Source: Escherichia coli
Lineage (GTDB): Bacteria; Pseudomonadota; Gammaproteobacteria; Enterobacterales; Enterobacteriaceae
Length of the DNA: 64,000 bases
Assembly: GCF_044647545.1 (NCBI RefSeq)
Contig: NZ_CP172818.1
Reading direction: 5' to 3' (one strand)
Shown here: positions 5,660 through 6,735 of the stretch, piece after piece
Position numbering within the stretch: position 1 is the first letter of the stretch
How the letters are laid out: every line of letters starts with the position of its first letter
Notes under the pieces: model-generated
What the model was told of the DNA's origin: nothing
The model's input: only the letters and a program-made list of their open reading frames with translations
The model's database searches: none
Translations under genes and position numbers: made by a program

Positions 5660-6735
5660 ACGCACGCAAAAAAAATATTCCATTTTTGATAAAAAATATA
5701 GAAAAATAAATTTTAAATTTATTAAATTAATTTTTTTTTTTTTAAAAAACAAAATATATAAAAAATTATTTTCTTTATAGAAATTAAAAAAAATTAAACA
5801 TTAAAGGAAAAAATAGAATAAATAAAAAAAAAAAAAATTTTTTTAAAAAATTATAAATATTATATTTTACAATATAACATTATAAAATTCTTTTTAAATC
5901 ATAATAAAAAAAACAAAAACAAAGAATAAAAATAAAAATAAAAAAAGATAATAATGATTATTTTTTATAAACATATGATAAAATGATTAAATTTTAAATA
6001 TTTTAAAAATATAATTATATAAAAAATAAATAAAAAAAAAAAAAATAAAAAAAAAAAAAAAAAAAAAGTTATATTATTTTTATAAAAAAATTATTTAATT
6101 AAACAAAAAAAAAATAAAAAAAGAAAAAATAGATAAAGATAAAGATAAATTAATATAAAAAAAGAAAAAAAAGATAAAATTTGTAACCTAAATTTTATTA
6201 TTTAAAATATTACTAAAAAAGAAAAAGAGAAAAGAAAAAAAAAAAAAGTGAAATGTAGTATATGTAAATAAAAAAAAAAAAAAAAAATTAAAAAAAAAAA
6301 AAAAAAAAAAATAAAAAAAAAAAAAAAAAAAAAAAAAAAAAAAAGAAAAAAGAAAAAAAAAATAAAAAAAAAAAAAAAAAAAAAAAATAATAAATTTTTA
6401 TAAAAAAAAAAAAAGAAATAGAAGAAAAGGAATAAAGAAAAAAAAAAAAAAAAATATAAATATTTTTTTTTTTTTTGTTTTTTGTGTTAGGGTAAATTTA
6501 AAATATAATATAACAAAAAAACTCAAATTTATAATATTATGTGTATATATTTAGTTTAAAGAGTTTTTTAAGAGAAAAGAAAGAAAAGAAAAAAAGAAAA
6601 AATAAATAATGTTTTAAAAATAATTATAACACAAAATAAAAACAAAAAAGTGTTCATGAAGGGAATCGATGTAGAGGATGCACATATAAAAATAAAATTA
6701 AAAATATAACTTTATATATGTTTGTTTTTTTTTCT
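5660..6735. other. Anomalous ~1.1 kb extremely AT-rich, low-complexity, ORF-free block (probable foreign or chimeric insertion); borders uncertain
   Basis: By eye roughly 90% or more A+T against about 50% GC flanks; near-pure A runs of 20-60 nt (6046-6067, 6279-6344, 6362-6388), T runs (5741-5753, 6465-6477), microsatellite agataaagataaagataaa (6131-6149); no ORF of 60 aa or more in any frame across 5781-6721. Confidence 0.85.

Follow-up and report, generated by a model that had tools for sequence, protein, structure and literature searches.

What is the extremely AT-rich, apparently gene-free sequence that lies between the convergent genes malZ and acpH in this stretch of Escherichia coli DNA, and is it likely ever to have been part of a cell? 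The stretch, referred to here as the window, comprises 64,000 nucleotides of contig NZ_CP172818.1 (assembly GCF_044647545.1). An earlier note had described the block from the letters alone, judged it anomalous and probably not genuine, and compared it with eukaryotic DNA. Placing the block beside the corresponding region of the closest genomes leads us to a different view of its origin and to a similar view of its authenticity.

Composition of the AT-rich block

The unusual composition is readily confirmed. Positions 5670-6650 contain 64.7% A, 27.4% T, 5.6% G, and 2.2% C, and the earlier description of a strongly A-biased block of about 90% or more A+T therefore holds (92% A+T, 65% A). In 200-nt windows, GC content falls from ~0.55 in malZ to 0.05-0.10 across 5700-6450 and climbs to 0.47-0.54 by ~6700-6800; in the rest of the 64-kb window it is never below 27%. 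The long homopolymers and purine microsatellites that had been pointed out are present as well, with T runs of 13 nt (5731-5743) and 14 nt (6463-6476), ~75 nt of near-pure A (6270-6344) that include the longest pure A run of 32 nt (6313-6344), and the microsatellites agataaagataaagataaa and aaagaaaaagagaaaagaaaa, both found with TRF. A polypyrimidine-CAG motif occupies 6724-6738. The ORF list also agrees with the earlier reading in that it holds no ORF of at least 60 aa across 5781-6721, where the largest, of 35 aa and 42 aa, are on the minus strand.

None of the hallmarks of a mobile element (IS, REP, prophage, or integron) was detected in the block, which has no ORFs, no inverted repeats at its borders, and no significant phage or plasmid match. 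Terminal inverted repeats were sought at the borders and are missing, the inverted repeats that do occur being pairings of A runs with T runs only, and an Rfam search of 5400-7000 with E values up to 1 gave no match.

The flanks and the closest genomes

Apart from the block, the window corresponds nearly exactly to ST648-type E. coli genomes such as ECONIH1. Over the ~62.9 kb of flanking sequence, one substitution, two small deletions, and one IS4 copy account for all differences from the closest genomes. Positions 1-5673 align to ECONIH1 with 0 mismatches and five deletions, all of them in 5623-5673, and positions 6784-64000 with one substitution and two small deletions in ~57 kb; the 24 kb 3' of the block are 100.0% identical to ST648-type genomes such as ECONIH1. 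In a BLAST comparison with ECONIH1, 5674-6783 is the sole part of the window without a match. When 5000-7400 was searched by megablast against 5,426 complete E. coli genomes, the flanks alone (54% of the query) gave matches; in the best of these, the distance between the flanks exceeds that in the window by 495 bp, and malZ and acpH are separated by a hypothetical gene.

The few differences outside the block can be described individually. In the yajD/tsx spacer, 4 bp (ATAA/TAAA) are deleted at 13394 relative to ECONIH1, directly after the yajD stop codon; none of the 5,426 complete E. coli genomes gives a gap-free full-length match there, the best (95.2%) being with the 4-nt gap. In the yajO-dxs spacer, a 2-bp deletion (AC on the + strand) lies at 20446, 13 nt upstream of the yajO start codon, and it is found in 0 of 5,424 matching genomes, with best full-length matches of 97.6%. 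Each of the two deletions could be a polymorphism private to this genome, or else a faint trace of the deletion-prone corruption seen in the block. The sole substitution in the ~57 kb, G>A at 40613 in clpX, is at a third codon position and synonymous (GCG>GCA, Ala). At ~58149-58160, in the spacer between ybaY and an MGMT-family gene, ECONIH1 has an IS4 copy (L005 21233-22579) that is missing in the window; the 12-nt overlap of two BLAST segments at this place fits a target-site duplication in ECONIH1, and the difference looks like ordinary IS polymorphism.

The native island between malZ and acpH

In all ST648-type genomes matching the window, malZ and acpH are separated by a 1,656-bp island whose one gene encodes a hypothetical protein of 481 aa. 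The statement in the earlier note that malZ and acpH are near neighbours in K-12 proves correct (they are 4 bp apart there), but K-12 is the wrong comparison for this window, as in the lineage to which the window belongs the two genes have a 1.66-kb island between them. The idea of an insertion into a tight malZ-acpH junction consequently falls away, as the closest genomes already carry the island at this place.

The island occurs in 1,128 of the 5,426 complete E. coli genomes (~21%), always on the chromosome, and the carriers include O157:H7 and ST648. Its gene products are 481-489 aa long (e.g., WP_038431952.1 and WP_022645275.1). In ECONIH1 the island has ~37% GC, and its gene (L004 6315-7760; 481 aa, WP_038431952.1) contains an internal 12-nt tandem repeat, AAAAAATTGCGA x5 (L004 7156-7216), that encodes a KIAEKIAKK-like stretch. 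In searches of Pfam, NCBIfam, PADLOC, PHROGs, and PDB, the 481-aa protein gave nothing significant, and it belongs to no recognizable family. The native 193-aa AcpH is found in 21,065 blocks of a public gene-position index, and it adjoins a 481-489-aa hypothetical gene in 3 of the 3 places displayed. The island gene is frameshifted in CLSC36 and interrupted by IS1 in DFL.5 and E21; L002 2310-3603 is a further locus of the native island gene. The malZ-acpH island is an ordinary, widespread accessory gene with a hypothetical product. In the window this gene is destroyed, with no ORF of the size given above left in 5781-6721, and the 481-aa protein is not encoded.

Borders of the altered interval

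Comparison with ECONIH1 allows exact placement of borders that the earlier note had given as uncertain. Alteration begins at 5623, where malZ has just ended with its stop codon, and native identity returns at 6784, within the last acpH codons; the altered interval thus takes up everything between the two genes and includes the acpH stop codon (Table 1). The left transition zone contains five deletion events (AGCAT, G, G, G, and G) and zero substitutions, AGCAT being the bases that immediately follow the malZ stop codon in the native sequence; the terminator-like hairpin CAGCCCTGACA...TGTCAGGGCTG found natively 3' of malZ is gone from this zone. The remainder, up to 6783, has L004 6189-7784 of ECONIH1 as its counterpart. 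At the other end, the alteration has overwritten the acpH stop codon and has thereby extended AcpH by 15 aa, such that the protein is identical to the native one to residue 193 (native C terminus ...RKAL) and then runs into a nonsense tail.

Table 1. Coordinates of malZ, acpH, and the parts of the altered interval in the window
Feature	Position	Strand	Basis
malZ (maltodextrin glucosidase), intact, 605 aa	3805..5622	+	ORF list; window 1-5622 without mismatch to ECONIH1; annotation
Left transition zone, native post-malZ sequence minus nine bases	5623..5673	+	Base-by-base differences; alignment
Degraded collinear copy of the malZ-acpH island, no ORF left	5674..6783	+	Global alignment; substitution and deletion tables
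Poly(A) core	6253..6432	+	Piecewise mapping; TRF on native island and block; alignment
acpH, 208 aa (native, 193 aa)	6735..7361	-	Translations; ORF list

Homology of the block to the island

From 5623 to 6783, the block is collinear with the native island end to end and is 495 bp shorter. A global alignment of the 1,110-nt block with the 1,596 native nucleotides that it displaces scored 132.5. For comparison, the reversed block scored 22.5; 100 permutations of the block in 30-nt chunks, which preserve local composition and destroy order, scored 33.4±7.8, with a maximum of 54.5; and 1.6-kb pieces of the 38-kb locus outside the island scored no higher than 24.5. The alignment can be followed by eye, as where native AAATTGCTTTTCATTTCCGGAAATGAAAACTTAGTAAACATTTCAGCGGAAAAAATCGATGAAATAAAAAATAGCAAAGATTTCTTTTCAAACATTGTAAATATAATAATTTTAC stands opposite window AAATTATTTTCTTTATAGAAATTAAAAAAAATTAAACATTAAAGGAAAAAATAGAATAAATAAAAAAAAAAAAAATTTTTTTAAAAAATTATAAATATTATATTTTAC, and a readable stretch pairs window 5751-5900 with L004 6430-6580. 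When the block was mapped in pieces of 81-90 nt, the best match was inside the island for 11 of 13; the first three pieces and the poly(A) core were collinear, the rest were ambiguous, and the last two lay outside the island. This mapping places 6163-6432 on L004 7133-7261, and the poly(A) core corresponds to the fivefold 12-nt repeat of the native gene with its non-A bases turned into A.

Other measures separate the block from its controls to varying degrees. Exact-match chains reached 195, against 114 for the reversed block, a weak discrimination owing to low complexity, and an alignment reduced to purines and pyrimidines was barely above shuffles (z ~3). As a simple model, the native island stripped of all G and C aligns with the block at z ~6. 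Plain removal of G and C was rejected as a full account, since it leaves over the T>A changes and the multi-base deletions. On the strength of the alignments, we regard the AT-rich block as a heavily garbled copy of the native island gene, at the same site and in the same orientation.

This collinearity bears directly on the proposal that the block is foreign AT-rich DNA of a dictyostelid or apicomplexan type, arrived by contamination, a chimeric join, or horizontal transfer. The resemblance that suggested it is real on the surface, as the block is 92% A+T, has long A and T runs, and contains the polypyrimidine-CAG motif; intergenic DNA of very AT-rich eukaryotes such as Dictyostelium and Plasmodium is like it in base composition and homopolymer runs. 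Unlike such DNA, however, the block derives from a bacterial gene, its composition is the sole likeness, and its eukaryote-like motifs align to native bases (e.g., TGTTTTTCTTACAGTTG against TGTTTTTTTTTCTCAGTTG). A chimeric join would be expected to show a sharp break at either end and to be unrelated to the sequence that it displaced, whereas here the whole block follows the native bacterial island and both ends grade into native sequence. A eukaryotic or otherwise foreign origin was ruled out by the collinear alignment, and we see next to no probability in it. Of the claims made in the earlier note, then, the block's anomalous character for E. coli stands, and so, in spirit, does the suspicion that an artefact or a spike-in is involved; the foreign origin does not stand, neither as a chimeric join or contamination, which the bacterial homology and the gradual ends contradict, nor as eukaryote-like DNA, for the block matches a known bacterial element.

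Error spectrum of the altered interval

The alignment also permits a direct reading of what has happened to the native sequence. Between window 5623-6783 and native 6129-7784, 869 of 1,141 aligned positions are identical (76%). Native A is retained at 483 of 498 aligned positions, and 207 of the 272 substitutions are to A, the individual classes being G>A (89), C>A (68), T>A (50), C>T (17), G>T (16), and A>T (10). In ~121 events of 1-29 nt each, 515 native bases have been deleted, and only ~20 bases have been inserted. The identity, substitution, deletion, and insertion counts hold up with three scoring schemes. In all, ~47% of the native bases are altered or missing in the block; the window copy has lost ~31% of the island's bases and ~82% of its G/C, with native G/C surviving at 13-29% only. 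The changes are also unevenly distributed, in that deletions make up almost all of those in the first 300 native bases, substitutions to A dominate further along, and G/C retention climbs over the last ~150 nt. Changes to T are clustered in T-richer contexts. Repeat loops and A runs are new in the block, for which TRF lists 27 rows against 4 for the native island.

Since the flanks are essentially undiverged and yet the island carries ~270 substitutions and ~120 deletions, ordinary evolution is excluded. Deaminase-type hypermutation (APOBEC-, RIP-, or bisulfite-like, or of the MutaT7 type) could be considered, as the change is local and G>A is the commonest single class. Deaminases yield C>T and G>A only and no indels, however, whereas C>A outnumbers C>T in the block by 68 to 17, T>A occurs 50 times, and 515 bases are deleted. 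These transversions and indels, together with the weak purine/pyrimidine-only alignment, exclude a deaminase-type process, and transition hypermutation of the island in general was ruled out by the transversions in the substitution table. Mutagenic retrohoming of the diversity-generating retroelement (DGR) type fares no better. DGRs change A to any base, and it is excluded because A is precisely the base conserved in the block; in addition, the annotated ECONIH1 region matching the window contains ordinary chromosomal genes and the one IS4 described above and no reverse transcriptase. Taken as one family of explanations, deaminase- and DGR-type mutagenesis is left with a negligible share of our confidence.

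A further account would be genuine localized hypermutation in which one island strand would have been copied in an error-prone manner, with A inserted opposite unreadable template bases or those bases skipped. The route could be A-rule-type bypass of abasic sites or a grossly dATP-biased pool, and the product would then have replaced the native island. A-rule translesion synthesis past abasic sites shares with the block the changes to A, the unchanged native A, the excess of deletions over insertions, and the strand asymmetry. Indeed, nearly all + strand substitutions are to A, and the A rule predicts that native A stays unchanged, as a lesion at template T is invisible. It also speaks for such a process that the limits of the interval are those of a discrete, AT-rich accessory island. 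Lesion bypass would not be expected, however, to produce deletions as long as 29 nt, changes to T where the context is richer in T, or new tandem loops. The implied lesion density is implausible as well, since ~270 substitutions and ~120 deletions are packed into 1.66 kb, whereas the neighbouring 5.6 kb have none and the next 57 kb differ at three small places only, and general knowledge of translesion synthesis suggests that a template with hundreds of one-strand lesions within 1.7 kb could not be replicated in vivo. As the block is furthermore missing from all public data searched, we consider localized hypermutation decidedly unlikely. In its most specific form, the block would be real DNA, an AT-rich island rewritten in a single strand-asymmetric event of A insertion and skipping in a very recent ST648 descendant, with the core neighbours spared; we hold this to be very improbable.

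Occurrence in public sequence data

Searches for the block elsewhere relied on its less repetitive right end; BLAST was run with 6470-6800, and the collections were scanned with an exact 38-mer taken from 6650-6687. BLAST did not find the right end in the 5,426 complete E. coli genomes, the 38-mer was not found in JGI metagenome contigs or GTDB species-representative genomes, and searches of plasmids and phages returned weak AT-rich chance matches only. No record of the 208-aa AcpH exists among 153 billion public gene positions. Similarly, none of the public genomes searched has the island in such a degraded state.

A sequence unique to the window, with borders exactly at both flanking stop codons, might also be a real engineered locus in which the island was replaced in the strain by a designed or synthesized AT-rich derivative. 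The block, however, contains no selectable marker, scar site, promoter, or ORF, and a purpose is not apparent. It also seems unlikely that a design would include a ragged, deletion-only onset, a destroyed acpH stop codon, and 32-nt A runs that are hard to synthesize. Deliberate replacement of the locus is, accordingly, an exceedingly doubtful account.

A probable corrupted rendering of the native island

To our knowledge, no in-cell process yields the error spectrum of the block together with untouched flanks. We therefore infer, by exclusion, a non-biological cause and propose that the block renders the native island in corrupted form and is most probably not a genuine cellular sequence, a reading to which we assign a probability of roughly 0.86. 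The source genome would have been an ST648-type E. coli with the 1,656-bp island in the malZ-acpH gap, and the island interval alone would have been put through a lossy, one-directional process. In such a process, A would be retained; G, C, and some T would become A, or T within T-rich stretches; and 1-29 bases would be skipped per event, with collapse into homopolymer and short-repeat loops. The output would resemble the low-complexity collapse of a sequence predictor. Compared with the native malZ-acpH island, the window copy has kept site, orientation, and full-length collinearity; it has no ORF, and the acpH stop codon is overwritten.

As to how the corruption arose, our preference is for a stretch that was altered in silico or else generated or smoothed by a model. 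The substitutions that follow their context, the repeat loops, the borders exactly at the ends of coding sequences, and the absence from public data are indirect evidence of a model-made or in-silico sequence. For autoregressive genome models, a collapse of the output into low-complexity homopolymers has been documented (bioRxiv 10.64898/2026.01.17.700093). Collapse as reported for Evo 2 shares with the block the drift into homopolymers, the short repeat loops, and the preference for the locally likeliest base; it sets in after 300-400 kb of free generation, however, and is kilobases long, whereas the block remains tied to a real template and the sequence then becomes exactly native again. The second, less likely origin of the corruption would be a failure of base calling or consensus confined to this part of the source assembly. 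Ordinary nanopore error, at ~6%, has transitions in excess of transversions and shortens homopolymers (PMC8486125). Ordinary nanopore read or assembly error was rejected as an explanation, as it does not fit ~47% of bases changed or lost, prominent transversions, and new long A runs.

Two observations run counter to the proposal of a corrupted rendering. The onset and the fading of the alteration are gradual, unlike those of a crude cut-and-paste spike-in, and the borders are also the ends of a horizontally acquired island, so that an island-specific biological process is possible in principle. Should reads spanning the block confirm it, an unknown island-specific hypermutation process would be at hand, which would be highly interesting; the rewriting of an island in a single event, if true, would represent a previously unknown mode of targeted xenogeneic DNA destruction.

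In conclusion, the AT-rich block is not a real feature in our assessment and is of little biological significance. A reading based on composition, as eukaryote-like, xenogeneic, or H-NS-coated DNA, would badly mislead here, and one alignment to the nearest relative resolves it. The block matters as quality control and not as biology.
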